Source of the DNA: a virus
Reading direction: 5' to 3' (one strand)
Length of the DNA stretch: 64,000 nucleotides
IMG/VR virus record: IMGVR_UViG_3300021373_002437
Span: 1 to 64,000 of that record
Part shown: in pieces, positions 6,884-52,972 of the stretch
Numbering within the stretch: the stretch's first letter is position 1
How the letters are laid out: each line of letters begins with the position of its first letter
Made by a program: the position numbers and the translations under genes
The notes under the pieces: model-generated
The model's database searches: none
The model's input: only the letters and a program-made list of their open reading frames with translations
What the model was told of the DNA's origin: nothing

Positions 6884-8306
6884 TCATTTAATAGAATATA
6901 GAAAACGAGTCCTTGATGCGAAGTCCCCGTCTTTCTGTGGTGCGAAATGGTATAATGCTACTACTTGGTTAGGTAGTGGAACTACTGCATCGTGCCACCA
7001 CCCGACTGCTCATAAAATACCTCTTGTGGAGCTAGAGGCTGATCATACTGCAATACACAACACGAAGCATAAGAAAGCAGTTAGAAAGATGATGCAAGAA
7101 GGCGAAAGGCCAAAGGAGTGTGAATATTGTTGGCGCATTGAGGATATGGGTAAGGATTCTGTTTCGGATAGAGTTTTCAAATCAGAAATCTACAGCGAAG
7201 AAGACCTTCAGAAAGCTTATGAAATGGATTGGAAAGATAGTGTTGATTTAAAGACTTTTGAAATTGCTTTTGATCGAACATGTAACCTAGCATGTTCTTA
7301 TTGCAACCCCTCCTTTTCTTCTACGTGGGCTAGGGACATTAAAAAACTGGGTCCATACCAGAATCTTTTATCTGATGGAGCGGGTGCGTTTGAACAAGAT
7401 GGTTCTTGGACTGAGCCTTATGGTAGAGACGAAGAGAACCCGTATATCACAGCATTTTGGAAGTGGTGGGATGATGGGTTGTCAGATAGTCTAGAAGAAT
7501 TACGTATTACTGGTGGTGAACCCCTAATGTCTGGTAACACTTGGAAGTTATTTGATTGGTTTGAACAACAAGATTCTGACATGAGGTTTGCAATCAATAC
7601 AAATTTCATGGCAAAGGACGAAATTGTTGATCGTTTGATTGAAAAATCTCACCACATAAAACATTTTGAGCTTTATACTAGTGCTGAGTGTTATGGCACC
7701 CAGCAAGAATTTTTACGTGATGGGTTTGAATGGGATACATGGTCGAAAAATATGGACCGATTTGCAGAAGAGGGTAATTATCATAGCATAAATATCATGA
7801 TGACGATCACTGCTTTGAGTGTGTTTTCTATTACAGAATTCTTAGACGAAGTTACAGATATGAAGCAGAGAAGTCGTGCTGGCAAACATCCTGTAATAAG
7901 CGTCAATATTTTGAGGTTCCCTAGCTTCCAAAGCGTTGTGACATTACCAGAACATATAAGAGCATTTTGTAGAAACGAGTTGTTTCTTTGGATTGAAGAG
8001 AATAAAAATTTGCCCTGTTGGTTAGATTTTGAAATCGCCAGCCTGCAAAGACTGGTCGATTATCTGTATTCATACGACTCTCCATTTGAGAAGGCTAGTG
8101 AGTTGGAGGTTCGACAACAAGACTTAAAATCTTTCTTTGATCAATACTGTGATCGTAGAGGTAAGGACATAAACGTATTTCCAACAATTTTTACCGAATG
8201 GTATAATTCTTTGGAAAGTGGGTATAAGAAAGCAGCTTTGAAGTCTGGAGATAATACTAGATTTTTGGATGATAATAGATTAATAGAACTGAGGGACATA
8301 TTATGA
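6876..8306 (+). CDS. Radical SAM protein with N-terminal twitch-like domain (subfamily A)
   Basis: CGAKW...SCHHP...ECEYCW; CNLACSYC; ITGGEP; DRRG...FP. Confidence 0.9.
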   Translation: MSDHLIEYRKRVLDAKSPSFCGAKWYNATTWLGSGTTASCHHPTAHKIPLVELEADHTAIHNTKHKKAVRKMMQEGERPKECEYCWRIEDMGKDSVSDRVFKSEIYSEEDLQKAYEMDWKDSVDLKTFEIAFDRTCNLACSYCNPSFSSTWARDIKKLGPYQNLLSDGAGAFEQDGSWTEPYGRDEENPYITAFWKWWDDGLSDSLEELRITGGEPLMSGNTWKLFDWFEQQDSDMRFAINTNFMAKDEIVDRLIEKSHHIKHFELYTSAECYGTQQEFLRDGFEWDTWSKNMDRFAEEGNYHSINIMMTITALSVFSITEFLDEVTDMKQRSRAGKHPVISVNILRFPSFQSVVTLPEHIRAFCRNELFLWIEENKNLPCWLDFEIASLQRLVDYLYSYDSPFEKASELEVRQQDLKSFFDQYCDRRGKDINVFPTIFTEWYNSLESGYKKAALKSGDNTRFLDDNRLIELRDIL

Positions 8307-9361
8307 CAAAGACTGTTGTAATGACTTTACAAAATCCTCTTGATGAGAGTGATTTGTTGGAGATTGAATATGAAGTATTGGACACCACTATAGGTAACCA
8401 ATGGTTTGATCATTGCATCATGAATCTGAACAAACGACAAAGAGTTGAGAAAAATTTTTGTTGGTTGGGTTGGCCTGATCAAAACAGGACAGTTGAGTTT
8501 CTTGCAGAGCGACTAGAGCGTTGCGTTGATACTATAAATGAATTTGCGGATACTAATAATCCACATTGGAATGGATACCGTATAGAAAAGAGTTGGGAAG
8601 ATATTACCAGTGATGATGCCTTAAATCAACTTCATCACCATTTTGAAATTTTGATGGGACAGGTTTGGGATGTTGCAATCTATATGCGTTCTGCTGACCC
8701 AAAAACCTCCTATGCTATTCGGCAATTGAATAATTTAGTTCACGAACTACAAGCTAGGAAATATGCCAACAAATCTGGTATGACTGTTGTGAGTTATTTG
8801 GACCCGATTAGAGAAGAGTTTGACGAACAGCATTATGACAGCTTTTCTATAAACAGAAATTTTGGTGATATCTTCTTACATTACGCACAAACTGGAAAAA
8901 CACCAATAGAAGCATTTGAGGACAATGATGATTATGTGTTTAATAATAACATAAATGCATTGCGATACATGTCTGGTGAATTTAATATTTGGTGGAATGC
9001 TTCAACCTCTGAATCTGATGTAAATTCAACTAAAGAGAAACTTGGAGCATGGTTAAACGCCAGAGAAGTTATCATGCAAGAGCAAGATGATTTTTGTTAT
9101 TATGTTGACCCTGATGGTAATAAACAGGGTATCGGGTGGCTGACAGTAGCAAAGATAAAAAACCCTTTCGAAACAGAAGACGAATTGGTTGAAGAGGTTA
9201 ATAAGCGTCTTAATATATATAAGCTTGCCTGTTATATTGATGGTGAATTTGTTACTGAAATGCAGTGGGATTATAAGTGGTCTGATGAAGACTATATTGA
9301 AAATGAAGTAGAGTATTTGACTCCACTATTTCCATGCTCACAACCTAACGCTTTGGATTGA
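8303..9361 (+). CDS. Hypothetical protein, His/Asn-motif paralog 3
   Basis: LNQLHHHFE...IRQLNNLVHELQ...HYAQTGKT. Confidence 0.75.
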   Translation: MTKTVVMTLQNPLDESDLLEIEYEVLDTTIGNQWFDHCIMNLNKRQRVEKNFCWLGWPDQNRTVEFLAERLERCVDTINEFADTNNPHWNGYRIEKSWEDITSDDALNQLHHHFEILMGQVWDVAIYMRSADPKTSYAIRQLNNLVHELQARKYANKSGMTVVSYLDPIREEFDEQHYDSFSINRNFGDIFLHYAQTGKTPIEAFEDNDDYVFNNNINALRYMSGEFNIWWNASTSESDVNSTKEKLGAWLNAREVIMQEQDDFCYYVDPDGNKQGIGWLTVAKIKNPFETEDELVEEVNKRLNIYKLACYIDGEFVTEMQWDYKWSDEDYIENEVEYLTPLFPCSQPNALD

Positions 9362-9362
9362 A

Positions 9363-10760
9363 ATGCCACATACATACGATTTAATAAAGGTTAAAGATAT
9401 AACGGAACAATTGAATGAAGTTGGTCCCGGTTTTTGTATGGCTAAGTGGTACCACATTAGCATGCATCTACATACGGGACAAAATCACAGTTGTTACCAC
9501 CCAGCCCCACATAAAATTCCATTGAAAGAAGCACAGGAGAACCCTAATGTACTCCACAATACCCCATATAAGAAACAGGTTCGAAAAGAAATGTTGTCTG
9601 GTGGTAGACCCTCAGAATGTTCTTATTGTTGGGATGTAGAAGACTTGCCCGGAGACCATATTTCTGATAGAATGTTAAGGTCTTCTGAAGAATGGTCTAT
9701 ACCTAAAATTGAAGAAACTTCAAAGATGACCGGGGATGAAGATGTTTATCCTGCATATCTAGAACTGAATTTTAGTAATCGCTGCCAATTTAAGTGTAGT
9801 TACTGCGCTCCTATGGCTAGTTCTACTTGGGTTAATGAAACGGATAAGTATGGTGATTGGCCTTTGGAAAACCCGATCAATGTTAGGCAGTACCAAAACA
9901 TATCATTCCAAAATGAGGGGACTAAACATGGAGAAGAAGATTCGAACCCATATATTAAAGTCTTTTGGGATTGGTTTCCAGAAGCATATCCTCATGTACA
10001 GACACTTAGATTCACTGGTGGCGAGCCTTTATTAAGCCCCAATGTTTTCAAGGTTCTTGATTATGTTTCAGAACACCCAAACCCAGAACTTAAATTTGCT
10101 GTAAACAGTAACATGTCAGTTCCTCAGAGAAACATAGAGCGGTTCATTAATGTCACTAATGATTTGGTGCAAAATAATAAAATCAAGGGGTATGGGGTAT
10201 TCACCAGTGTAGATACGTGGGGGGCACAAGCTGAATGGATACGTAATGGATTGAACATAGAGAAATACGAAAACAATCTTCATTACTACATGCAAAACTC
10301 CGCAACCCCATATATGAGTTTTATGGTCACGTTCTGTTTGCTGGCAATTCCTAGGTTCACGGAATTTTTGGATAAAGTATTGGAATTGAGGAAGCAGTAT
10401 AACGTTTGTAATGATCAGCGCCAAAGAATAAACTTTGATACTCCATACACAGTAGAACCACCACATTTAACCGCTAGAATTGCAGATGATTGGTTTGTGG
10501 AAAGATTAGATCACAACTGTCAATACATTTTAGACAGGGTTGATGACAATGATGTGAATGCGTTTTCCATGGTAGAATATGAAAAGCTTCATCGGGTTTT
10601 GGAGTGGGTGAAGAGAAGTAGATTTGAGGGCGATGAATTGGCAATGAACCGTAGAGACTTTGCTAAATTTGTCGATGAACATGACAGGAGACGGGGCACA
10701 GACTTTCATGCTGCATTCCCTGAACTTAGAGAATTTTATGAGATGTGTAGAAAATCATGA
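9363..10760 (+). CDS. Radical SAM protein with N-terminal twitch-like domain (subfamily A)
   Basis: CMAKW...SCYHP...ECSYCW; CQFKCSYC; FTGGEP; DRRRGTDF..AFP. Confidence 0.9.
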   Translation: MPHTYDLIKVKDITEQLNEVGPGFCMAKWYHISMHLHTGQNHSCYHPAPHKIPLKEAQENPNVLHNTPYKKQVRKEMLSGGRPSECSYCWDVEDLPGDHISDRMLRSSEEWSIPKIEETSKMTGDEDVYPAYLELNFSNRCQFKCSYCAPMASSTWVNETDKYGDWPLENPINVRQYQNISFQNEGTKHGEEDSNPYIKVFWDWFPEAYPHVQTLRFTGGEPLLSPNVFKVLDYVSEHPNPELKFAVNSNMSVPQRNIERFINVTNDLVQNNKIKGYGVFTSVDTWGAQAEWIRNGLNIEKYENNLHYYMQNSATPYMSFMVTFCLLAIPRFTEFLDKVLELRKQYNVCNDQRQRINFDTPYTVEPPHLTARIADDWFVERLDHNCQYILDRVDDNDVNAFSMVEYEKLHRVLEWVKRSRFEGDELAMNRRDFAKFVDEHDRRRGTDFHAAFPELREFYEMCRKS

Positions 10761-12064
10761 AAGATGAAAAAAATGAAATTATGTGCAAAACATTCACCGA
10801 TGATGTTCAGGAGTCATTTTGTGTACTTCCCTTTGTCCACACAAACCTGAACACTGAGGGAGATGTTTACCCCTGTTGTATTTCTTGGGACGCAGAGCGT
10901 TCAAATAAAATTGGTCTTTTAAAAGATAATACTTTAGAAGAATTATTCAACGATGATAAGCTACAACAACTTCGTCGCGACTTGATATCAGGAACGCGCC
11001 GCCCCGATGTTTGTGTTCGCTGTTACACTTCTGAAGACAATGGTTTTCCTGCTGGTAGACATGGCAACAATCGTGATCTGCAGCACATGATTCCTCAAAT
11101 ATTAGAGGACTATTCTGAAACCGGATATATGCCACCGAAAATAAAAAGCTGGGATATTCGTTATAGTAATTTATGTAATTTGAAATGTAGAAGTTGTGGT
11201 GGAATATACAGCACTACATGGTCAAAAGAAGATTCTGAGTTTTATCATGGGATGGAATACCGCGAGATAAAATCATATGAAGGAAAAGACCCTCTTGAGA
11301 ACCAATATGAACACGTAGAAAAAATATATTTTGCTGGTGGTGAGCCACTTATAATGCCAGAACATTTTTCAACCCTGAAGAAGTTGATTGAAATCGATAG
11401 AGCCAAGTACGTTAGATTAGTTTATAATACTAACATGACAAAACTCAATTATGATAGGAACTACTTACCAGATTTGTGGAAAGAATTTAAAGCAGTTTCA
11501 TTGGGGTTGAGTATAGATAATTTTGGGGATAGAGCAAACTACATACGTCATGGAAATATAAAATGGAACAAAATAGAAGATAATATTAAGAAAATGTATG
11601 AATATACAACGACTCCCGGTTCTAATATGGATTACTTTTTTTCACCAACTGTGAGTTTATTGAATGTGTATACTTTAACAGATTTGCATCGCTATTTATT
11701 TGAAAATGGTATGATGGTCCACCCAGACCAAATACTTCTCAACATTTTGTATCACCCACAGGAACTTTCTATCACCATACTCCCTGACCACATAAAGGAA
11801 GAAATATCTGGCAAAATTATTGCACATATAGCGTGGTTGAATTCCTTGGACGGTACTTATGGCAATGCCAAAGGGCAATTTGAAAGTCTATTGTCCTATA
11901 TACATGAGACAATACCGAATGTGGAAGAACATGTTGAACGTTTTGTGAAAAGAACCCAAGAGATTGACCACAGAAGAAATGAATGCTTCCCAGATACCTT
12001 TCCAGAATATGCAGAATGGTGGCAAACTATTACTAAGGACAAAATTTTCGCGGTAAACATATGA
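10757..12064 (+). CDS. Radical SAM protein with N-terminal twitch-like domain (subfamily B)
   Basis: CVLPF...PCC...CVRC; CNLKCRSC; FAGGEP; DHRRNECFPDTFP. Confidence 0.9.
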   Translation: MKDEKNEIMCKTFTDDVQESFCVLPFVHTNLNTEGDVYPCCISWDAERSNKIGLLKDNTLEELFNDDKLQQLRRDLISGTRRPDVCVRCYTSEDNGFPAGRHGNNRDLQHMIPQILEDYSETGYMPPKIKSWDIRYSNLCNLKCRSCGGIYSTTWSKEDSEFYHGMEYREIKSYEGKDPLENQYEHVEKIYFAGGEPLIMPEHFSTLKKLIEIDRAKYVRLVYNTNMTKLNYDRNYLPDLWKEFKAVSLGLSIDNFGDRANYIRHGNIKWNKIEDNIKKMYEYTTTPGSNMDYFFSPTVSLLNVYTLTDLHRYLFENGMMVHPDQILLNILYHPQELSITILPDHIKEEISGKIIAHIAWLNSLDGTYGNAKGQFESLLSYIHETIPNVEEHVERFVKRTQEIDHRRNECFPDTFPEYAEWWQTITKDKIFAVNI

Positions 12065-13329
12065 AAGAACTGCCCAAAACTATATGTGCTCACCCGTGGC
12101 AACATTTACATAGTTGGCCTGATGGGAAGGCTATGTTGTGCTGTGTTGCCCATGGGGGAGATAAACACGGTGCTGTTGGTGATTTTTCGGTTAATTCATA
12201 CGAAGAAATTATGAACAGTGATAAAATGAATCAAATCCGAAAAGATTTCTTGAATGGTGAGAAACCCGTTGAGTGTAGTGCTTGTTGGAAAGCTGAAGAG
12301 TTGGGTAAAAGCAGTTTTAGGTTAGATATTGGTCTCAGCGATGAAGTAAGAGATTTGATGGAAAGAACCTCCGATAATGGAGAGCTTCCAGAAACAAAGA
12401 TGTATTACATGGATTACCGATTCAGCAATCTGTGTAACCTTGGTTGTCAAACTTGTGGTAGTCCACTTAGCAGCACAATAGCAAATAAGAGGGAGAATAA
12501 CGAGAGTGAAAATTCTATACTGAGAGACCGAGGGGTTTTATCTGAGAGGGGTACTGTTACATCATTTGTTTATGCCAGACCAGATTTCATGGAAGTTGAT
12601 GTTTATCCATATTTGGATGATTGTCGGAGTTTTTATTTTGCTGGTGGTGAACCGTTAATGCACCAAGAACATCTGGATATACTTAACTACCTAAACGACA
12701 ATAAATTATACAATAAGCACATAATGTATAGTACAAACCTGTCAATTTTATCATGGAAGGGTAACGACTTTATTGATATTTGGAAAAACTTTAGCAACTT
12801 GATGTTTTGGTGTAGTGTAGATGCACATGGCCCCGCATTAGAATATGTTAGGGAATATTCCAACCACGACACGATCTTTAAAAATTTGCAAAAGTTGTTA
12901 GATGCAAAAAAAGATCATCCCCAAATGAAGATAAATATTTGCTGTACCCACAGTGTATATAATGCATATTGTTTTCCAGAATTTATAGACTTTTTGTATG
13001 AGCAGGGATTTCTACAACTGCTGGATGATATTGAAATAAACTATGCTTTTGGAGATTTGAATTCTCCAGCAATACTTCCTAACTTCGCAAAAAAGGAACT
13101 AAAAGAGAAGAGGGCCCTTTGTAGGAACAATGAATCAATTCAATATGCAATGCAAAAATTTGATAAGTTTGAATATTACTATGACACAGTAGATTCTGTT
13201 ATAGACGAACCCAGTCAAAAAAGAGTCTGGGATGATCTGGTCTCAAAAAAATTGATAAAAGATATGAAAAAGCTTGAAAACAGCCTGCCTTGGTTGCACA
13301 GTGTTGTTGAGAGGTATAGAATTGTATGA
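12061..13329 (+). CDS. Radical SAM protein with N-terminal twitch-like domain (subfamily B)
   Basis: CAHPW...LCC...CSACW; CNLGCQTC; FAGGEP. Confidence 0.9.
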   Translation: MKELPKTICAHPWQHLHSWPDGKAMLCCVAHGGDKHGAVGDFSVNSYEEIMNSDKMNQIRKDFLNGEKPVECSACWKAEELGKSSFRLDIGLSDEVRDLMERTSDNGELPETKMYYMDYRFSNLCNLGCQTCGSPLSSTIANKRENNESENSILRDRGVLSERGTVTSFVYARPDFMEVDVYPYLDDCRSFYFAGGEPLMHQEHLDILNYLNDNKLYNKHIMYSTNLSILSWKGNDFIDIWKNFSNLMFWCSVDAHGPALEYVREYSNHDTIFKNLQKLLDAKKDHPQMKINICCTHSVYNAYCFPEFIDFLYEQGFLQLLDDIEINYAFGDLNSPAILPNFAKKELKEKRALCRNNESIQYAMQKFDKFEYYYDTVDSVIDEPSQKRVWDDLVSKKLIKDMKKLENSLPWLHSVVERYRIV

Positions 13330-14531
13330 CACATTGCATTAACGTATATAAAGGACTTAGATATACCAATAGTGGGGATGTTCAGTTTTGTTGTAAGAGT
13401 GATATGTTTCTAGATGATAAGGATGGGAACAAGGCACAAATTTATACTCACACCCTAGAAGAAGCCCAAAATGGAAATCTTGCTGTCGAAATTAGAGAAG
13501 ATTTGGAGCGGGGGGTAAAACATAAGAATTGCCAGAAATGTTGGGATGAAGAAGAAGCTGGCATTTCTAGTAAAAGAATTTTGGACAACCAAAGAGCTAT
13601 TCGATATTGGGGAGAAAGGTATTTAAATGATAAAGTGGTATCCCCAGAAATAGTTGAGTTTAATTTTGGAACTATTTGCAACCTCAAATGTAGAATATGT
13701 GGTCCGTGGTCGAGCAGTAGATGGAATTCTGAATTTTATGAGTTGCTTGCCGGGGAGGATTATCCAAAAGAACATCACGACAACCAAGTTTCTTTGTGGC
13801 AAGGTAATTGGGAAGATGATAGTCCTGCGTGGGACAATATTTCTAAAAGCATCGGCAACCTAAGACACATTGATTTCTATGGTGGCGAGCCTTTTTTGGT
13901 AGACCGCAATTGGGAAATATTGAAGCAGAATGTTGAAAATGGTAATTCCTCAAACCAATATATCCATTTCAATACGAATGGAACTCGTTATGAGGAAGAG
14001 CATATAGAAATTTTAAAGAGTTATCGTAGAATAAATATAAGTTTATCTATTGACGATATGGGGGAGCGATTTAATTATCAGAGGCATCCGGCTAACTGGG
14101 ATATAGTAAATGAAAACTTAAAGAAATTTAAAGAGCTTGAAGAAGAATTCCCCCAGTTTGAAGTTATGGTCTGTGTGACTGTTAATAATTTAAATTTGTG
14201 GTATATACCGGAATTGGTGAATTATTTTGATAGTATGGGAATACCCTATTATATAAACTATTTACACTACCCCTCCCACTATAACATATCAAATTTAAAA
14301 CAAGATGTTAAGCCTTTGGTGGCGCAAAAATATGATGAAGCCATGATGGAGATGCAATGTAATTATAGTAAAGATAATTTGAAAGCAATAATAAATTATA
14401 TGAATGTTAATATAGGCACCGCTGAACGGTGGAATGAATTTTTAAATAAAACTGAATTCAGTGATAAATATAGAAAACAAAATTTTAAAAGTGTTTTTCC
14501 TGAGTGGGCCGATGTGTTGGGGATTGTGTAA
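13326..14531 (+). CDS. Radical SAM protein with N-terminal twitch-like domain (subfamily B)
   Basis: HC...FCC...CQKCW; CNLKCRIC; FYGGEP; DKYRKQNF..VFP. Confidence 0.9.
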   Translation: MTHCINVYKGLRYTNSGDVQFCCKSDMFLDDKDGNKAQIYTHTLEEAQNGNLAVEIREDLERGVKHKNCQKCWDEEEAGISSKRILDNQRAIRYWGERYLNDKVVSPEIVEFNFGTICNLKCRICGPWSSSRWNSEFYELLAGEDYPKEHHDNQVSLWQGNWEDDSPAWDNISKSIGNLRHIDFYGGEPFLVDRNWEILKQNVENGNSSNQYIHFNTNGTRYEEEHIEILKSYRRINISLSIDDMGERFNYQRHPANWDIVNENLKKFKELEEEFPQFEVMVCVTVNNLNLWYIPELVNYFDSMGIPYYINYLHYPSHYNISNLKQDVKPLVAQKYDEAMMEMQCNYSKDNLKAIINYMNVNIGTAERWNEFLNKTEFSDKYRKQNFKSVFPEWADVLGIV

Positions 14532-15203
14532 TTGAATATAGTTATAGTTGGTGCTGGGAATGACCCGCAAAGATTTGGGGGATATTTCAAACAAGTTGCA
14601 GAAGAAGCGGAACATACTGTTTATACGTTTTCTTATAGACTTGAAACTACCGCTCTTGAGGACGTTCCAGTTATTTTTGAGTTGGATGTTTTAGATCGTA
14701 TACCAGAGGGAGAAACAATAGACTTGTTTCTATACAATTCCATTGGTGGGTTTTATCCGGGTCAACCAAAACATTATTCTTCATTGCACGATGTTAATAT
14801 GTACGAGTGGCAGAAATCTATTCTCATAAACGCAGCAATTCCACACAAACTTTCTACAATGGCTTTAAGAAAAATGGATGAAAACAGTTCTATTGTGTTT
14901 ATGACTTCTTCTGCCTCTTATTTGATAAACAGAGACAATTATTTGGAAATGGCTGGTTACTTTGGCACTAAAGGTGCTATGAATCAACTTATGCGAGCCA
15001 TGGCAGAATATAATGATAAGGGGACTACAGTATATACCATGGCACCGCACATACCATACGAAAATCCAGAACAGGCACGACTCATATTGAAAAAATTGAC
15101 CGATTACATTTTATCTATGAATAAAGAAAGTAATGGAAAAATACTACAGTGTTATCCACCAGATGGTAGAATCTGGCCCCACGAGGGAGGACAACATCCA
15201 TGA
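14532..15203 (+). CDS. Short-chain dehydrogenase/reductase (SDR)-like oxidoreductase
   Basis: N-terminal IVIVGAG...G, FMTSS, YFGTK (YxxxK catalytic motif). Confidence 0.75.
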   Translation: MNIVIVGAGNDPQRFGGYFKQVAEEAEHTVYTFSYRLETTALEDVPVIFELDVLDRIPEGETIDLFLYNSIGGFYPGQPKHYSSLHDVNMYEWQKSILINAAIPHKLSTMALRKMDENSSIVFMTSSASYLINRDNYLEMAGYFGTKGAMNQLMRAMAEYNDKGTTVYTMAPHIPYENPEQARLILKKLTDYILSMNKESNGKILQCYPPDGRIWPHEGGQHP

Positions 15204-15328
15204 AAGACGAAAAAGATGTAGGAGAAAATGAAAAAGATCAGAAAGAAGTTGAAGAAAAAAAATCTGATGAAACATTGAAAGATAAAATTGATAAGTTGAA
15301 AAAAGAAGACCCGTTTATATATGACTAA
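15200..15328 (+). CDS. 42-aa charged peptide ending KKEDPFIYD (not in the ORF track)
   Basis: MKDEKDVGENEKDQKEVEEKKSDETLKDKIDKLKKEDPFIYD*; GGAGG SD; ATGA overlap with the SDR stop and 8-nt overlap with the next start. Confidence 0.75.
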   Translation: MKDEKDVGENEKDQKEVEEKKSDETLKDKIDKLKKEDPFIYD

Positions 15329-15926
15329 TTTAAAGATAACAAAACCATTCGAGGGGTGGAAATACCACGGTGATGTTAATAAGGTTCCTTGTTGGTTCTT
15401 TGAGGGTGTTGATGTACCTGACATAGATTTCGATTCGTTAAAATGGAAGTCAAAACAGGGAGATTTTCTACAGGGGTCCGAAACCTTTGCATTGAGGTAT
15501 GAGGTCGAGGATATGTCAGACGCTTTGCAGAGAACATTAAGAGATTTGACTGTTTCTGTTATAAGCGAGATTCGTGAAAATCATTCTGAAAACATGGGAA
15601 TAGATATTTTGTATCCAATTTTTCCATGGAATCTCACTGCTAAGGTTGCTCTAAAAAAAGACATGAAAAGATTTCATATGGGAAAACATCTGGATAATAG
15701 AAATTCTAGATTTACTTTCATTATGAATTTAACTGACAATCTTGATGGCACTACTTTTCACACTGAAAATTTTGCAGAGCCATATAATGAATATGACCCT
15801 GTGTTTGGTCCCACCAAAAAAGGCAGTGGTGTTTTCTATTTCAACCATCACACATTAATACATGATATTGGACCAATAAAGTCAGAGGAACGATACATAC
15901 TTTTTCATCAACAATATATGAATTAA
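15321..15926 (+). CDS. 2OG-Fe(II) oxygenase-like protein
   Basis: HLD (HxD)...GTTF...GVFYFN..TLIH...R pattern typical of the double-stranded beta-helix fold. Confidence 0.7.
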   Translation: MTNLKITKPFEGWKYHGDVNKVPCWFFEGVDVPDIDFDSLKWKSKQGDFLQGSETFALRYEVEDMSDALQRTLRDLTVSVISEIRENHSENMGIDILYPIFPWNLTAKVALKKDMKRFHMGKHLDNRNSRFTFIMNLTDNLDGTTFHTENFAEPYNEYDPVFGPTKKGSGVFYFNHHTLIHDIGPIKSEERYILFHQQYMN

Positions 15927-15927
15927 A

Positions 15928-17361
15928 ATGATAGCTTGGGGAGTTAGTGCCGGATTTCATGATGCTGCTTTGTCCGTGGTGGACAGCAGGCAGATTCTTT
16001 TTGCCTCGCATTCGGAGCGTTACAGTAGAGAGAAAAACGATAAGAACCTACACTCGGACCTGATACAAGACGCATTACAGTTCGGTTATCCCGAAATTAT
16101 ATTCTGGTATGAAAACCCTCTTTTAAAAGCCACCAGAAGAATCTATGCTGGACAAAGTAACTGGTACACAAATCCAAAGAAGTATTTTACTGAGGCTGGC
16201 TTTGACCCCTGTTGTCATATAGAATGGGGAAACCACCATGAGAGTCATATGGCTGCTGGTCACTACACAAGCCCGTTTGGTTCTTCCGCGACTCTAGTGA
16301 TTGATGCTATTGGGGAGTGGACCACAACATCCATCTGGAAAAACAATAAGAAGATTTGGAGTGCAAACTATCCACGTTCATTGGGACTGCTTTATTCTGC
16401 CTTCACAGATAGAGTTGGACTAAAGCCCAATGAGGATGAATATATCTTGATGGGTATGGCAGCATACGGTGAGCCTAATTATCAGGACGAGATTTATGAG
16501 TTGTCCAGAACAAGAAACTTCCACCGGGGAGCGAGAGACTTCCGACCAAATCTTACCTCAGAACAAGACCTGTTTGATATTGCATGCAGCGTACAGAAAG
16601 TATATGAATCATACTTTCATGCTTTGTTGTATAAGGCTAGAGATTTGACGGGAGAAAAGAATCTTGTGTTCATGGGTGGTTGTGCTTTGAATTGTTTAGC
16701 TAACAGGATGATTCCAAGGTATTTTAAAAAATATTGGATTATGCCCAGCCCCGGTGATGCAGGTTCTTCTCTTGGAGCGGTTCTTGCAAAGACCCGAAGA
16801 TATGTTAAATTTAAATCCCCTTACCTTGGGTACAATATTGAAGGCAAGTACCCAGTCAATGCTGCACTTAAAGAGTTGATGGAAACTGGTATGGTGGGCG
16901 TGGCGAATGGTCGCGCTGAGTTTGGTCCTAGGGCATTAGGTAACAGGAGCTTACTTGCAGACCCTCGTGGTCAAGAAATGAAGGACAAGGTGAATGCAAT
17001 CAAGCAGAGGCAAGAGTTTCGTCCCTTTGCCCCAGTGATACCTCAAGAAAAGGTTTCTGAGTATTTTGATGTACCCGAAGATTTTGAATCCCCCTATATG
17101 CAGGAGGTTGTTCGCTGTAAATACCCAGACGAATTCCCAGCCATTGTACATAAAGACGGTACCAGCCGTGTACAAACTGTAACCAAAAAGCAAAATTCTG
17201 GGTTATATAGATTGCTTACTAAGTGGGAACAGGAGACTGGTTGCCCCATGCTTCTGAATACTAGTCTAAATATTAAGGGACAACCAATTGTCAACAATGA
17301 AAAGCATGCGCGTGACTTTGAGCATAAATATAACGTGAGAGTTTTTACACAAGAGACCTAA
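15928..17361 (+). CDS. O-carbamoyltransferase, NodU/CmcH family
   Basis: GFHDAA, HHESH, DAIGE, MGMAAYG, GGCALN, EFGPRALGNRS, FRPFAP, HKDGTSRVQTV, LLNTSLN. Confidence 0.95.
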   Translation: MIAWGVSAGFHDAALSVVDSRQILFASHSERYSREKNDKNLHSDLIQDALQFGYPEIIFWYENPLLKATRRIYAGQSNWYTNPKKYFTEAGFDPCCHIEWGNHHESHMAAGHYTSPFGSSATLVIDAIGEWTTTSIWKNNKKIWSANYPRSLGLLYSAFTDRVGLKPNEDEYILMGMAAYGEPNYQDEIYELSRTRNFHRGARDFRPNLTSEQDLFDIACSVQKVYESYFHALLYKARDLTGEKNLVFMGGCALNCLANRMIPRYFKKYWIMPSPGDAGSSLGAVLAKTRRYVKFKSPYLGYNIEGKYPVNAALKELMETGMVGVANGRAEFGPRALGNRSLLADPRGQEMKDKVNAIKQRQEFRPFAPVIPQEKVSEYFDVPEDFESPYMQEVVRCKYPDEFPAIVHKDGTSRVQTVTKKQNSGLYRLLTKWEQETGCPMLLNTSLNIKGQPIVNNEKHARDFEHKYNVRVFTQET

Positions 17362-17363
17362 AT

Positions 17364-17371
17364 TATAAATA
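17364..17371 (+). promoter_or_regulatory. T4-type late promoter TATAAATA
   Basis: Exact consensus in the intergenic gap before 17380. Confidence 0.75.
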
Positions 17372-17379
17372 ATCGTATC

Positions 17380-17676
17380 ATGGGTGATATACTTTTATTC
17401 AAACAAAAACCCAAGGAAAAAGAGCCGCTGCTCTTGGGTTACAAAATATCTTTCTATACTGAGGTAGAGATTGAGATAGCTTTGCTGGCTCTCAATATGT
17501 ATGGATTTGATAAGATCAGATACACCGTAGAAACAATGAAACAGTTAGACCCATTGTACATACGGGACTGCCTGCTAAAACTCAAAATGAGTGATTTGAT
17601 TTCGCGCAAAGGAAAACGTGCGATTAATGTTATTATCGATAATATGGAGGAAATACGTGATGCCAACCAAATTTAA
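17380..17676 (+). CDS. Hypothetical protein
   Basis: 98-aa ORF directly after a late promoter. Confidence 0.7.
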   Translation: MGDILLFKQKPKEKEPLLLGYKISFYTEVEIEIALLALNMYGFDKIRYTVETMKQLDPLYIRDCLLKLKMSDLISRKGKRAINVIIDNMEEIRDANQI

Positions 17677-17857
17677 ACCTAGCGTGGTTAACACCGCAAA
17701 AACTTCTAATGGGACTACCTCTCGTAAGACTCAACATTACTACATGAGTGGTATATCCACAAAAGAACTTCTAGAGACGTACCAGAAAAGTAATACTACT
17801 CCCAAGTACAAAGACAAGATTCGAAAGGAACTTGTAAAGCGCGGAGTTGAAGTCTAA
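17660..17857 (+). CDS. Small basic hypothetical protein (MPTKFKPS...)
   Basis: GGAGG SD before ATG at 17660; coupled to the next gene. Confidence 0.65.
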   Translation: MPTKFKPSVVNTAKTSNGTTSRKTQHYYMSGISTKELLETYQKSNTTPKYKDKIRKELVKRGVEV

Positions 17858-18165
17858 TGCCACTGTATACTTTTCAAGATACTGAAACTGGAGAAGTTGA
17901 CGATGTTATAATGAAGTATGAGGACAAGAAAGCCTTTCTTGCAGACAATCCTCACATAACAGAAGTCATGGGAGCACCGGCATTCGTTAAGGGTGTCGGA
18001 GATAGGACAAAGGCCCCTGAAGGGTTTAAGGAGCTTTTGTCTAAAATATCTCAAGCAAATCCTAACAGCAAGCTTGCTCAAGACTATGGTCCTAAAGATC
18101 ATAAATCGGTTAAGATTAGAGAGCTTGTACAAAAACACGCAGCTAAAGCTACAGGAGAAACATAA
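17857..18165 (+). CDS. FmdB-like small protein of T4-like phages
   Basis: MPLYTFQDTETGE...GFKELLSKI pattern. Confidence 0.6.
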   Translation: MPLYTFQDTETGEVDDVIMKYEDKKAFLADNPHITEVMGAPAFVKGVGDRTKAPEGFKELLSKISQANPNSKLAQDYGPKDHKSVKIRELVQKHAAKATGET

Positions 18166-22581: not shown

Positions 22582-22680
22582 TTGGCCCCCCTTAAAGAGC
22601 ATTGAGCAGTGTGATGACGGTCACAAGGAATGCAGACAGTAGATATGAGCGATCTACCAGTGCTTTTTAAAGGGGGCCAA
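22582..22680 (+). ncRNA. Unidentified ~100-nt structured RNA element
   Basis: ~23-bp closing stem TTGGCCCCC-C-TTAAAGAGCATTG / CAGTGCTTTTTAA-A-GGGGGCCAA with G-U pairs, enclosing two hairpins (TGTGA/TCACA and GTAGAT/ATCTAC). Confidence 0.55.
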
Positions 22681-22684
22681 TAAA

Positions 22685-23066
22685 GAATTCGATGACGCAG
22701 ATCGAAGAACGGACGGACGCGGGTTCAACTCCCGCCGCCTCCACCAAAAGCACACTACATATGGGCGACTGTTAGCTGGACTACATATTGGGTAGTAGAG
22801 TTACCGAGGAAAGAAACCTATTTCTTTAAGCTTGCTTGTTAATGGACAGTGCAAGTAGTGTGTTTTTGATGGGGGCGATACGGATTCGACGGACGGTGAT
22901 AGAGAAGCTGAGAATAGGTCAATGTGAAAGACCTTAAGGACTGGGAGTTCCCGGTTAAAGAAGCAAAAACTATAAACGCAAACGATGACGTTTATCATCA
23001 AGATATTTTGCTAGCTGCTTAAGTCTTGACGGGGTGCGGTGGGAGCCTTGTTAACCAATTCCCACA
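22685..23066 (+). ncRNA. ssrA: Circularly permuted (two-piece) tmRNA gene
   Basis: Acceptor piece ends GGACGCGGGTTCAACTCCCGCCGCCTCCACCA (22746); coding piece starts GGGGGCGATACGGATTCGAC (22871); G3:U70 Ala identity pair; tag ANDDVYHQDILLAA* at 22978-23022. Outer ends approximate. Confidence 0.92.
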
Positions 23067-23097
23067 ATTTTTACATATAATAATAAGAGAAATCTCC

Positions 23098-23859
23098 ATG
23101 AGTACATTTTTATTTGGTGATGATTGGAAGCTAAACTTAGCTAGAAACAAACTTCGCAACGCAACCTATGTTCATAAGTTTGGAGCGAACCCTACACCGA
23201 CAAATGGAGTTGAAGAATCGGTTTGGGATGGTTCTACTTTGTATCCTTGGTCAACTTGGGATGCGGGTGCTGATAATGTATATTTGAAATCGTCGGATGC
23301 CGGTGATGTTTCAATCACTGTGTTTATTCAGGGTCTTGATGAAAACTACGAACTACAGACAGAAATAGTTACACTTGATGCTACAGACCCTTCAGCAACA
23401 GCAGTAGCTTCTGCCAATACTTACATCAGACTTTTCAGAATGTATAATTCTAGCAGCACCCAAGAGGCGGGTAATATTACAGCACATTATGGGTCAGGTG
23501 CAGGGACTGTGGTGGCACAAATCACTGCAGGTGAGGGGCAAACTCTCATGTCAATTTACACCATTCCTGCTGGGCATATTGGTCTTCTTTTAGGCTGGGA
23601 TTTTTCTGGTAGTGCAAACTCTGCAATGACTTCTAGGTTGATGGTAAGACCTGAAAATAATGTTTTTCGTAATCAGCTTCAGGCTGCATCCTATGGTAGT
23701 AATTATAATAAAGATTTTTCTGTTCCGCTCGGGTTTACTGAGAAGTCTGATATTGATGTTCGGGTGACTGCTGGCACGGGTTCTGCTACGATCACATCTA
23801 CTTTTGGGATGGTCATAGTGAAAGATAATGAGTTTAATCTTTGGTCGCAAGGTTACTGA
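23098..23859 (+). CDS. Hypothetical phage protein (beta-rich, possibly structural)
   Basis: ATG at 23098 after AAGAG; VHKFGANP...ESVWDG...YTIPAG...EKSDI. Confidence 0.7.
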   Translation: MSTFLFGDDWKLNLARNKLRNATYVHKFGANPTPTNGVEESVWDGSTLYPWSTWDAGADNVYLKSSDAGDVSITVFIQGLDENYELQTEIVTLDATDPSATAVASANTYIRLFRMYNSSSTQEAGNITAHYGSGAGTVVAQITAGEGQTLMSIYTIPAGHIGLLLGWDFSGSANSAMTSRLMVRPENNVFRNQLQAASYGSNYNKDFSVPLGFTEKSDIDVRVTAGTGSATITSTFGMVIVKDNEFNLWSQGY

Positions 23860-41857: not shown

Positions 41858-43453
41858 GTGTCACTAATACTAACAAGAGAAGGTAGGGTACAAATTGCTC
41901 GTTCGATGTTGAGAGACATTCAAAACGAGAACGACTATTATTACTTTACCATAGGCAGAACGGAAGCTTGGTCGGACGAAGAATTGCCCGATACTCCTTT
42001 GGACTCCCCAGAGTCTTTGAATGAGTATCGACGCAGAATTATGTTTGTCCAACGAGTTACCGGTGCCGATGTTTGTCACTTAGTGACACGAATAAACTGG
42101 GTGTCTGGTACTGTATATGACCCATACGATGACAATTACAGTGCCAGCAATCCAGCGTATTCTGAGGCTACCACACTTGCCGATGCAAACTTTTATGTGC
42201 TAACTGATGAGTTTAAGCTTTACAAGTGCATCGACAACAATAACAACGCTCAGAGTACAGTAAAACCAACCACAACCAGCACAGATACGGTCACTCTAGC
42301 AGACGGGTATGTATGGAAATTTCTTTTGCAAGTCACTTCGGCTGACCAGACAAAATTTCTAAATTCATCCTACATACCGGTGCGGAAGCTTACGGGCAAC
42401 CCTACCTTTGATGTGAATGGAGAGGTTGATTCTGTAAGTGTTGTTAGTGGTGGTAGTGGTTATACCACCGCGTCAGTAACTATCAGCGGTGACGGGTCTG
42501 GAGCCACGGCAACTGCCACGATTGTTGGTGATGCCGTTGATTCTATTAATGTCACCAGTGAAGGTAGTGGGTATAGCTTTGCAATCGCCTCTATAAATGG
42601 AGACGGGACTGATGCAACGGCTGATGTAATTTTGGGTGACGCAGACAGTCTACCAGCACTCCAATCTGCAGTAGAGGCTGCGGCAAGTGCTGTGGGTGGG
42701 GGTATAGATAGAATTGTTGTTACTGATGTAGGACAAGACTACAGTGAAGGAGATGTTGAAGTAGTTATCACAGGTGATGGAACTGGCGCAGAAGCAACCG
42801 CAACCGTATCAGCTAATACTGGTGCTATTACTGGAATAACCGTAACATCACCGGGCACTGGATATACTTTTGCAGACATTACATTTACTCAGGCTATTGG
42901 TATTGGTACCGGTGGAACAGCCAGAGCGGTGATTGGTCCTATTGACGGACATGGAGCAAATTCAGTTAAAGAACTTTTTGCAAACAACCTTGCTTTGGTA
43001 AGTCCATTGGCAGACCCAAATAACATCGATCTTATTGTGGATAACGATTTTAGACAAGTTGGGCTTATAAAGAACATACAAAATTTTGCAGAAGATGCCA
43101 ACTGGACAGAATCAACCGGTTCGGCTACCTTTGTAATAGATGTAAACGATGCTAATGATTATGCTGTTGATGATGTCATTACTACTGATGAGGGTGGAAG
43201 TTTTAGGGTGTCCCATTTATCAGATGATAATAGTGGTACTTTTCAGGTACATTTGATACCAGTCATACCATCAATTACTGCGAGTAGTGTTCTGACAAAT
43301 GTTACTCAAGGTTTGACTCCACTGAGTATAAATAGTGTAACCTCTCCAGAAATAAGCAATACTACAGGCGATATTTTCTATATTGAAAACATTGTAAGTA
43401 TTACGAGACAAGACAATCAAGTAGAGACAATTAAGGTACTGATCACTTTTTAG
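41858..43453 (+). CDS. gp8: Baseplate wedge gp8
   Basis: IGR...W, RINW.SG..YD.Y, FYVLT....YKCIDN, DGY.WK, NDFRQVGLI, R...Q.E.IK. Confidence 0.9.
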   Translation: MSLILTREGRVQIARSMLRDIQNENDYYYFTIGRTEAWSDEELPDTPLDSPESLNEYRRRIMFVQRVTGADVCHLVTRINWVSGTVYDPYDDNYSASNPAYSEATTLADANFYVLTDEFKLYKCIDNNNNAQSTVKPTTTSTDTVTLADGYVWKFLLQVTSADQTKFLNSSYIPVRKLTGNPTFDVNGEVDSVSVVSGGSGYTTASVTISGDGSGATATATIVGDAVDSINVTSEGSGYSFAIASINGDGTDATADVILGDADSLPALQSAVEAAASAVGGGIDRIVVTDVGQDYSEGDVEVVITGDGTGAEATATVSANTGAITGITVTSPGTGYTFADITFTQAIGIGTGGTARAVIGPIDGHGANSVKELFANNLALVSPLADPNNIDLIVDNDFRQVGLIKNIQNFAEDANWTESTGSATFVIDVNDANDYAVDDVITTDEGGSFRVSHLSDDNSGTFQVHLIPVIPSITASSVLTNVTQGLTPLSINSVTSPEISNTTGDIFYIENIVSITRQDNQVETIKVLITF

Positions 43454-52489: not shown

Positions 52490-52972
52490 ATGACAGACAT
52501 GACTGTTCCTGCAGATAATGTATCTGTGGAAATTCCCCCCGAACCACCAAAAAAAGAATATCTAAATCCCTACTGGTCCAACAAGGAAAATCGTCACCTT
52601 ATAGTTACGATTAAATTCCCCAATGGAAAAACTTCCACTGCATCTATTCAAGACACGGATGGTAGTAACCCAGACATGAAAGAAATTATGAAGGTTTATA
52701 CCGAGGAAGACATTGATGCTAATACACAAAAGGGTCTTGATGTCCGTAATGAAAAAATCCGAAAACATGCAGAGAGAAAAGAATCGCAAAAAGCAAGGGC
52801 AAAGCAAGAGGCGCTTTTTGCAATTAAGCTTGAGATGTTTGAAATCGATACAATCAAAAATTCAGAAAATAAAGAATTGAAAAGACGCATTAGAAAAGCG
52901 AAGACCATTCCTGAAGCACAAGCCTACTGTACAATTTTGTTAATGAAAGAGATGGAAAATGAGTCAAAGTAA
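52490..52972 (+). CDS. Hypothetical coiled-coil protein
   Basis: GGAG SD; TATATATA late-like motif at 52452; LFAIKLEMFEI..IKNS. Confidence 0.7.
   Translation: MTDMTVPADNVSVEIPPEPPKKEYLNPYWSNKENRHLIVTIKFPNGKTSTASIQDTDGSNPDMKEIMKVYTEEDIDANTQKGLDVRNEKIRKHAERKESQKARAKQEALFAIKLEMFEIDTIKNSENKELKRRIRKAKTIPEAQAYCTILLMKEMENESK

Follow-up and report, generated by a model that had tools for sequence, protein, structure and literature searches.

The 64,000-nucleotide stretch of viral DNA analysed here (positions 1 to 64,000 of IMG/VR record IMGVR_UViG_3300021373_002437, hereafter the window) is part of a 96-kb marine virus record that was judged to be about half complete. It carries an operon in which a micro-open reading frame (micro-ORF), encoding a short peptide with the C-terminal end DPFIYD (the DPFIY tail), lies between the genes for a short-chain dehydrogenase/reductase (SDR) and a 2-oxoglutarate (2OG)-Fe(II) oxygenase-like protein, upstream of a NodU/TobZ-family carbamoyltransferase (CarbT) (Table 1). 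Conceptual translation of the micro-ORF gave MKDEKDVGENEKDQKEVEEKKSDETLKDKIDKLKKEDPFIYD, a peptide containing 11 K, 8 D and 8 E with a net charge of -5. The ATG start codon shares the tetranucleotide ATGA with the TGA stop of the SDR gene, and the ATG of the next gene (15321) falls inside the final codons of the micro-ORF, TATGACTAA (TAT GAC and the TAA stop). The micro-ORF is a genuine gene, overlapped by both of its neighbours. The Shine-Dalgarno-like GGGAGG is not specific evidence for it, because these bases also code for the EGG end that is conserved in the SDR family. The same DNA, 100% identical over the micro-ORF, was present in contigs of two marine metagenome studies, and no RNA run was listed as containing it. 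A preliminary description made from the sequence alone had reported a translationally coupled micro-ORF with a charged, low-complexity body, one gene upstream of a carbamoyltransferase; the overlaps, the composition and the position of the intervening oxygenase-like gene agree with it on all three points.

Table 1. Features of the window at and around the DPFIY-tail micro-ORF (aa, amino acids).
Feature	Position	Strand	Remarks
DPFIY-tail micro-ORF	15200..15328	+	42 aa, MKDEK...KLKKEDPFIYD; belongs to the DPFIY-tail micro-protein family as a divergent member with an acidic body
Shine-Dalgarno-like GGGAGG	15185..15190	+	9 nt before the micro-ORF ATG, within the end of the SDR gene
Invariant tail core D37-P38-F39-I40-Y41	15308..15322	+	Y41 is the proposed working residue
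D42 codon; stop codon	15323-15325; 15326-15328	+	Directly after the Y41 codon
SDR-family oxidoreductase, 223 aa	14532..15203	+	Pfam adh_short, 31.7 bits; NCBIfam SDR models match; directly upstream of the micro-ORF
2OG-Fe(II) oxygenase-like protein, 201 aa	15321..15926	+	Weak Pfam 2OG-FeII_Oxy_3 match
NodU/TobZ-family CarbT, 477 aa	15928..17361	+	Pfam Carbam_trans_N and Carbam_trans_C; PHROG 1601
Four tandem N-terminal-twitch radical S-adenosylmethionine (SAM) genes	9363..14531	+	NCBIfam NF033640, E 1e-85 to 1e-106; operon shared with the micro-ORF
Conserved 98-aa protein	17380..17676	+	No family match; follows CarbT in the window and in most related phage loci, where PhoH usually comes next

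Searching IMG/VR with a degenerate DNA pattern that encodes EDPFIYD and a stop gave 21 matching stretches, and all 21 matches were at ORF ends in related operons (17 small ORFs and four proteins of ~245 aa), with a CarbT present in 14 of these loci. The codons of the tail varied synonymously among the matches (GAA/GAG, GAC/GAT, CCN, TTT/TTC, ATA/ATT/ATC, TAT/TAC), therefore selection acts on the peptide and not on a DNA element. Judged by this comparison, the EDPFIYD ending in the window is far beyond chance. A contig reached via a relative of the 2OG gene (L001) contained a 34-aa ORF ending ...KLKKLREEDPFIYD that overlapped the beginning of a radical SAM gene. When 5.8 billion proteins were searched with a profile, the result was at least 147 clusters at 90% identity, 33–47 aa in length and none with a Pfam domain or a name, ending in DPFIYD and less often in DPFIYK. 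A HMMER scan of 1.84 billion representatives (50% identity) gave 355 matches at E ≤ 0.001, nearly all of 31–76 aa. No model for the peptide or its small relatives was found in Pfam, NCBIfam or PHROG; weak matches to DUF2400 (E 0.006), Sedlin_N, PriX and citrate synthase fell on the Lys-rich helix and were judged to be chance. A full-text literature search returned no paper on DPFIY tails, none naming DUF5989 and none on a carbamoyltransferase with radical SAM proteins in cyanophages. DPFIY-tail micro-proteins are a large family that is absent from public catalogues and the searchable literature.

Conservation of the family micro-proteins was confined to approximately the last 15 residues, in which a (K/R)-rich helix precedes D-P-(F/Y)-(I/L/M)-Y, with no conservation of the body. 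DPFIY was invariant in alignments A1 and A4. Position 5 of the tail was Tyr in 119 of 120 clusters (Phe in one) and in every bacterial tail, unlike position 3 where F and Y exchanged freely, and this difference suggests that the Tyr hydroxyl seems to matter. At most one residue followed the Tyr and it was variable (D 28, K 25, E 4, R 4, H 3), in phages partly serving an overlapping start codon (TATGAY or AAATGA). The motif was terminal in >95% of cases, with a few clusters tandem-repeated or carrying an internal motif. In clusters P0027, P0033, P0061 and P0098 the micro-protein was duplicated in tandem in one reading frame (...DPFIYKQEK...DPFIYK), which is why their first motif is internal.

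The window copy ends as the family does, with D-P-(F/Y)-(I/L/M)-Y and at most one further residue (DPFIYD), and it lies on the same strand and in the same operon as a CarbT of the 477-aa clade. Relatives and window copy also share the preceding KLKK, the length, the operon position and coupling on both sides. The body differs: its net charge compares with a family median of +7, it contains no Trp compared to 117 of 120 members with Trp, and the basic, Trp-containing amphipathic body typical of the family is missing. The window copy also differs in its setting between SDR and 2OG oxygenase genes rather than between an SGNH gene and CarbT. Against the profile of phage members the peptide scored E 9e-4 and 37 bits (as P0112 in the search of 5.8 billion sequences), a borderline score that came mostly from the tail. 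Acidic bodies with perfect tails were found elsewhere, directly before CarbT in two phage loci (L018 and L023) and in a bacterium (L090). Given these recurring acidic-bodied variants, KLKK-x-DPFIY is most simply read as the only part that matters, with the body as a spacer. The window variant, acidic in its body and lacking an SGNH partner, indicates that the tail alone is the indispensable part of the peptide.

Linkage of the tail to CarbT was assessed in phages on the best 80 of at least 592 loci, using the ORF-end pattern D-x0-1-(F/Y)-(I/L/V/M)-Y-x0-2. A tail-type ORF end was present on the CarbT strand in 64 of the 80 loci, compared to two such ends on the opposite strand, and the tail stop was located ≤12 nt from the CarbT start in 37 of 53 evaluable cases. 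The bacterial and archaeal set consisted of 78 loci of the same CarbT clade (45–54% identity) and spanned Alpha-, Beta- and Gammaproteobacteria, Verrucomicrobia, Bacteroidota, Actinomycetota, Myxococcota and others. Half of these loci (39/78) contained an ORF that ends in (K/R)(K/R)DP(F/Y)(I/L/M)Y, in some cases extended by a single K, D, P, H or R; every one of these ORFs shares the CarbT strand, and most of them stop at the CarbT start. A further 11 loci, all from Streptomyces, encoded a DUF6071 protein whose C-terminus reads ...RDFLYP or ...DRFIYP, bringing the loci with a tail to ~50 of 78. The preliminary description had proposed a search for a conserved DPFIY end beside homologous carbamoyltransferases, and the result was positive in phages and bacteria alike. 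Its reading of a carbamoyltransferase partner peptide is supported by this genomic association, while the alternative that it offered, a precursor resembling those of ribosomally synthesised and post-translationally modified peptides (RiPPs), is disfavoured. In some loci the micro-ORF followed CarbT instead of preceding it (L024, L187, L193, L211, L214), and no natural CarbT-tail fusion was seen among ~180 loci. Within one clade of ATP-dependent NodU/TobZ-type carbamoyltransferases, the DPFIY tail is a mobile module, encoded either as a free peptide (31–50 aa) or, on other enzymes of these sugar-tailoring operons, at the end of a disordered linker. One phage contig (L168; G130) had no tail near its CarbT and a DPFIY-coding site ~20 kb away at 43150-43164.

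Enzymes with a fused tail were 240–420 aa in length and belonged to at least five families. DUF6071 proteins ended in the tail in nine bacterial loci; elsewhere the gene order was DUF6071, micro-ORF, CarbT, and the two arrangements form a clear fusion/fission pair. DUF6071-like genes were present in 44 of the 80 phage CarbT loci, and in L001, L018 and L023 the gene immediately precedes the micro-ORF. The tail was also carried by a nucleoside-diphosphate-sugar epimerase/dehydratase (cluster P0122), by SDR-like proteins of ~245 aa (L007, L009, L013, L025, L192), by an N-terminal-twitch radical SAM protein (L169) and by a GatZ/KbaZ-like aldolase (L202). Language-model neighbours of the L007 SDR-like protein were epimerase/adh_short families. 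An AlphaFold2 model of a natural DUF6071-tail fusion had a predicted local distance difference test (pLDDT) score of 85, and its best Foldseek matches were all GDSL/SGNH esterases. The DUF6071 alignment retained GCS, GSND and HPxExGH, corresponding to SGNH blocks I, III and V, and the modelled structure shows DUF6071 to have a predicted SGNH fold. Residues 270-297 of the fusion (the last 28, comprising linker and tail) had a pLDDT <50 and are therefore predicted to form a flexible arm; there was no sign in the model of the disordered tail docking intramolecularly.

A fused origin was considered for the window itself, with the SDR protein and the peptide as a split form of the SDR-tail fusions of L007, L009 and L192, and was rejected. 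The tail was absent from all 58 clusters homologous to the window SDR protein, and similarity between this protein and the fused SDR-tail proteins was not significant (E 0.08 and 2). As the SDR family is never tailed, the window arrangement is not a recently split fusion. A pattern-based locus search seeded with the SDR protein found no relatives, and blastn of window positions 13000-18000 and tblastn of the peptide against the GenBank phage collection gave no useful match. Homologues of the 2OG oxygenase-like protein held the same locus position in contigs L001, L002, L003 and L008. Relatives of the window CarbT in the PDB were NovN, GdmN and TobZ, and the His-His-x-x-His motif of CarbT showed no variation in alignment A2. 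The radical SAM genes of the window are context and not obligatory partners of the tail, many tail loci being without them. The 98-aa protein encoded after CarbT may be a second fixed CarbT companion. Members of the family of a 352-aa protein encoded at window positions 8303-9361 (+) were located directly before micro-ORF and CarbT in three phage loci (L139, L155, L156), in the slot that SGNH-like genes occupy in other loci. The window also contains a permuted (two-piece) transfer-messenger RNA gene at 22654-23113 (+), with the tag peptide ANDDVYHQDILLAA (ARAGORN). A second tail-like end, ...HQDPFVY, at 52719-52823 (-) was dismissed as a chance look-alike of the tail; it is a hydrophobic, stop-bounded frame of 34 codons, antisense to a 160-aa ORF (52490..52972) and without a basic helix or start context.

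The preliminary description had also pointed to small SxtK/DUF5989 proteins ending in PFIY beside O-carbamoyltransferases, and this lead proved correct. Among 121 sampled genomes, 30 supplied members of DUF5989 (PF19451; SxtK type). These proteins read MSFLxELWAFMRxRKKFWLLPILIMMxLLGGLIVLSQGSAVAPFIYTLF, ending ...GSAVAPFIYTLF, and adjoin CarbT in 27 of 28 loci, the usual gene order being SxtJ, DUF5989, CarbT. The 42-aa peptide is not a member of this family. The DUF5989 Pfam model (membership threshold 27 bits, true members scoring 60–96 bits) matched neither the peptide nor anything else in the 96-kb record at E ≤ 10. Unlike DUF5989, with its central membrane helix WLLPILIMMxLLGGLIVL, the peptide contains no hydrophobic stretch, and an hhalign comparison of the peptide family with DUF5989 aligned five columns only (DPFIY/APFIY) with a probability of 31%. 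DUF5989 proteins end APFIY(T/A)(L/I)(F/Y), whereas the window tail has D before PFIY and only D and the stop after it. Global homology was therefore rejected on the missing model match, the missing membrane helix and the five aligned columns, and what the sequences of the DPFIY tail and DUF5989 share is a five-residue motif and synteny, not demonstrable homology. DltX-type Pfam models did not match DUF5989 either. In one alphaproteobacterial metagenome-assembled genome a DPFIY-tail micro-ORF was located between two divergently transcribed CarbTs of 705 aa and 485 aa (L028, 1776-6458), near sulfatase, GT2, GT1 and 2-hydroxyacid dehydrogenase genes. This genome also has a separate SxtJ-DUF5989-CarbT cassette (L106), thus both types of small protein coexist in one organism.

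The peptide probably acts as a flexible arm for CarbT. We infer that the flexible tail would enter the acceptor site of CarbT and bind there, that the hydroxyl of the invariant Tyr (Y41 in the window) would take the carbamoyl group from carbamoyl-AMP, and that the product, O-carbamoyl-tyrosine, being an activated aryl carbamate, would pass the group on to the final acceptor, for most relatives by way of the SGNH-fold transferase encoded beside the peptide. HypF, an enzyme combining YrdC and Kae1 domains, carbamoylates a C-terminal Cys on the flexible tail of HypE. DltX and the C-termini of bacterial membrane-bound O-acyltransferases (MBOATs) carry the motif FXYXXF, in which the Tyr is acylated and the group passed to the catalytic Ser of an SGNH protein (PMC12148441); the corresponding peptide of Neisseria PatA (NgPatA) is FIYANF (PMC12148441). 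This acyl-tyrosine shuttle feeding SGNH transferases is the subject of Schultz et al. 2023 (cited in PMC12148441) and Anderson et al. 2025 (PMC12148441). The DUF5989 end F-I-Y-T-L-F fits FXYXXF fully, and the phage and bacterial tail retains F-I-Y. Carbamoylation of the tail Tyr by CarbT, in a carbamoyl-tyrosine shuttle akin to that of DltX/PatA, is favoured here because the Tyr is strictly invariant and terminal on a disordered arm, an SGNH partner is frequent, the motif resembles FXYXXF and HypF-HypE offers a precedent; we give it a probability of roughly 40%. In the sxt cluster, SxtJ and SxtK have only been proposed to act 'in conjunction' with SxtI, and a GDSL-like sxtL follows sxtI-J-K (PMC2679770). 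A wider version, in which the tail Tyr would be an O-carbamoylated, soluble and mobile donor that extends the DltX/PatA shuttle to ATP-dependent CarbTs, and which would also explain SxtK/DUF5989 and the arrangement sxtI-J-K-L, is rather less likely than not.

Several observations weigh against a carbamoyl-tyrosine shuttle. With its basic, Trp-containing helix missing, the window copy could be relaxed or decaying, and it has only F-I-Y-D of the FXYXXF hexapeptide, the xxF half being absent. The 96-kb record gave no MBOAT match (PF03062, E ≤ 1, with control genomes matched), no match to PF19547, PF13472 or a custom DUF6071 hidden Markov model, and no SxtJ gene (PF19588). The closest CarbT relatives of the window (L136, L138, L141) had no tail nearby or elsewhere in their partial contigs, so in the DNA examined the tail is not indispensable to the enzyme. 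TobZ, NovN and GdmN carbamoylate their substrates directly, with no relay. Moreover, the SDR/epimerase, radical SAM and GatZ-like aldolase proteins carrying the tail are not acyl acceptors, which is consistent with simple docking, or with a neutral fusion of the tail to any gene that happens to precede it. Docking would mean that the tail binds CarbT non-covalently, much as MbtH-like proteins bind adenylation domains, and stabilises or activates it or tethers pathway enzymes or the membrane, with the Tyr contributing only a hydrogen bond. The linkage to CarbT applies equally to such a role, which explains the promiscuous carriers (SGNH, SDR/epimerase, radical SAM, aldolase-like) more simply and is consistent with bodies ranging from basic amphipathic Trp helices to acidic ones and with DUF5989 joining the same motif to a membrane helix. 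It requires no SGNH partner and hence suits the window better, with neither SGNH, DUF6071, MBOAT nor SxtJ in the record. However, a strict Tyr with free exchange of F and Y two residues earlier exceeds the usual needs of a hydrophobic docking motif, the motif is the same as that of a proven covalent shuttle, and both SGNH co-occurrence and SGNH-tail fusions are frequent. Docking on its own is the main rival of the shuttle and somewhat less probable than it.

The remaining explanations are improbable to different degrees. A RiPP-like precursor or scaffold, its aromatic tail processed by the radical SAM proteins, the 2OG oxygenase and CarbT and set free afterwards, much like mycofactocin, as a small product or cofactor, would account for the four N-terminal-twitch radical SAM genes in the operon and for the usual RiPP layout of a short peptide with a conserved C-terminal core; several bacterial tails even end exactly in ...IY, and MftA ends in ...VY. 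It is disfavoured, and we consider it improbable, because at least 13 bacterial tail loci (e.g., L028, L032, L036, L042, L043, L050, L052) have no radical SAM gene within 5 kb, as is also the case in several phage loci, because the tail is fused to whole enzymes and because the part that would be the leader is unconserved. In addition, no protease or exporter was seen in the annotated operons. About equally small is the chance that the window ORF is a decaying remnant without present function. The profile score is only E 9e-4, Trp and basic helix are missing, the nearest CarbT relatives do without a tail and the record has no SGNH partner, but the ORF is intact, with a start codon, a Shine-Dalgarno sequence and a 7/7 tail after KLKK, and acidic-bodied variants with perfect tails recur in other lineages (L018/L023; L090). 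TnaC and SecM stall ribosomes, and a regulatory nascent peptide of that kind, in which the basic stretch and DPFIY would stall the ribosome at the stop and tune translation of the coupled downstream gene, could account for conservation limited to the last ~15 residues, for a stop that in most loci overlaps the next start or directly adjoins it and for the same ending on different upstream proteins. Such arrest is very improbable when the gene downstream differs between loci (carbamoyltransferase, 2OG oxygenase, radical SAM, FNR-like, DUF6071), when the micro-ORF follows CarbT in some loci (L024, L187, L193, L211, L214) and when DUF5989 keeps the motif before three more residues in a membrane protein; there is also no intergenic RNA structure to unmask, and the genes of these operons all overlap anyway. 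The likelihood that none of these explanations applies is similarly slight.

Antibiotics, toxins, Nod factors and sugars of the cell surface are all decorated by carbamoyltransferases of the NodU/TobZ/SxtI class, and to our knowledge their small SxtK/DUF5989 companions have gone without an assigned function for nearly twenty years. The DPFIY-tail family is a second, simpler companion family that shares only the PFIY core with SxtK; it is soluble, ~35 aa long, usually terminal and variously fused, and it is widespread, occurring in hundreds of phage loci and many bacterial phyla. As gene callers have missed it and Pfam, NCBIfam and PHROGs lack it, it represents an annotation gap in marine phage genomes. 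The functional element is narrowed to five residues and one Tyr and can therefore be tested directly using one enzyme and a synthetic peptide. Should the Tyr carry a carbamoyl group, the tyrosine shuttle principle would have gained a new use.

Compared to HypF-HypE, the proposed shuttle would involve the same catalytic enzyme class and the transfer of a carbamoyl group from carbamoyl-AMP to a flexible protein tail, in HypE to its terminal residue. It differs in that the acceptor in HypE is a Cys thiol on a 330-aa protein, with a product that becomes the hydrogenase cyanide, whereas the sugar-tailoring operons would use the hydroxyl of a Tyr as acceptor; homology of the acceptors is not implied. 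The likeness to DltX/PatA lies in a micro-protein or fused C-terminal tail whose fused and free forms interchange, in an invariant Tyr in an F-I-Y context and, in most tail relatives, in an SGNH-fold protein encoded alongside. Here the donor would be a soluble ATP-dependent CarbT and not an MBOAT, the cargo would be carbamoyl and not acyl, and the window tail has neither a membrane anchor nor xxF after the Tyr. With DUF5989/SxtK the peptide shares its small size (42 aa compared to 49–50 aa), the PFIY core near the C-terminus and a position on the strand of a nearby NodU-family CarbT, which for the window peptide lies one gene away, with no SxtJ in the record. DUF5989 has a membrane helix and continues with TLF, whereas the window tail stops one residue after the Tyr, and the window CarbT belongs to another clade (477 aa) that is 30% identical to DUF5989-associated CarbTs. 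The nearest known kinds are DUF5989/SxtK and the DltX/PatA shuttle, from which the DPFIY-tail family differs in the clade of the donor enzyme, in its solubility and in its truncated motif.

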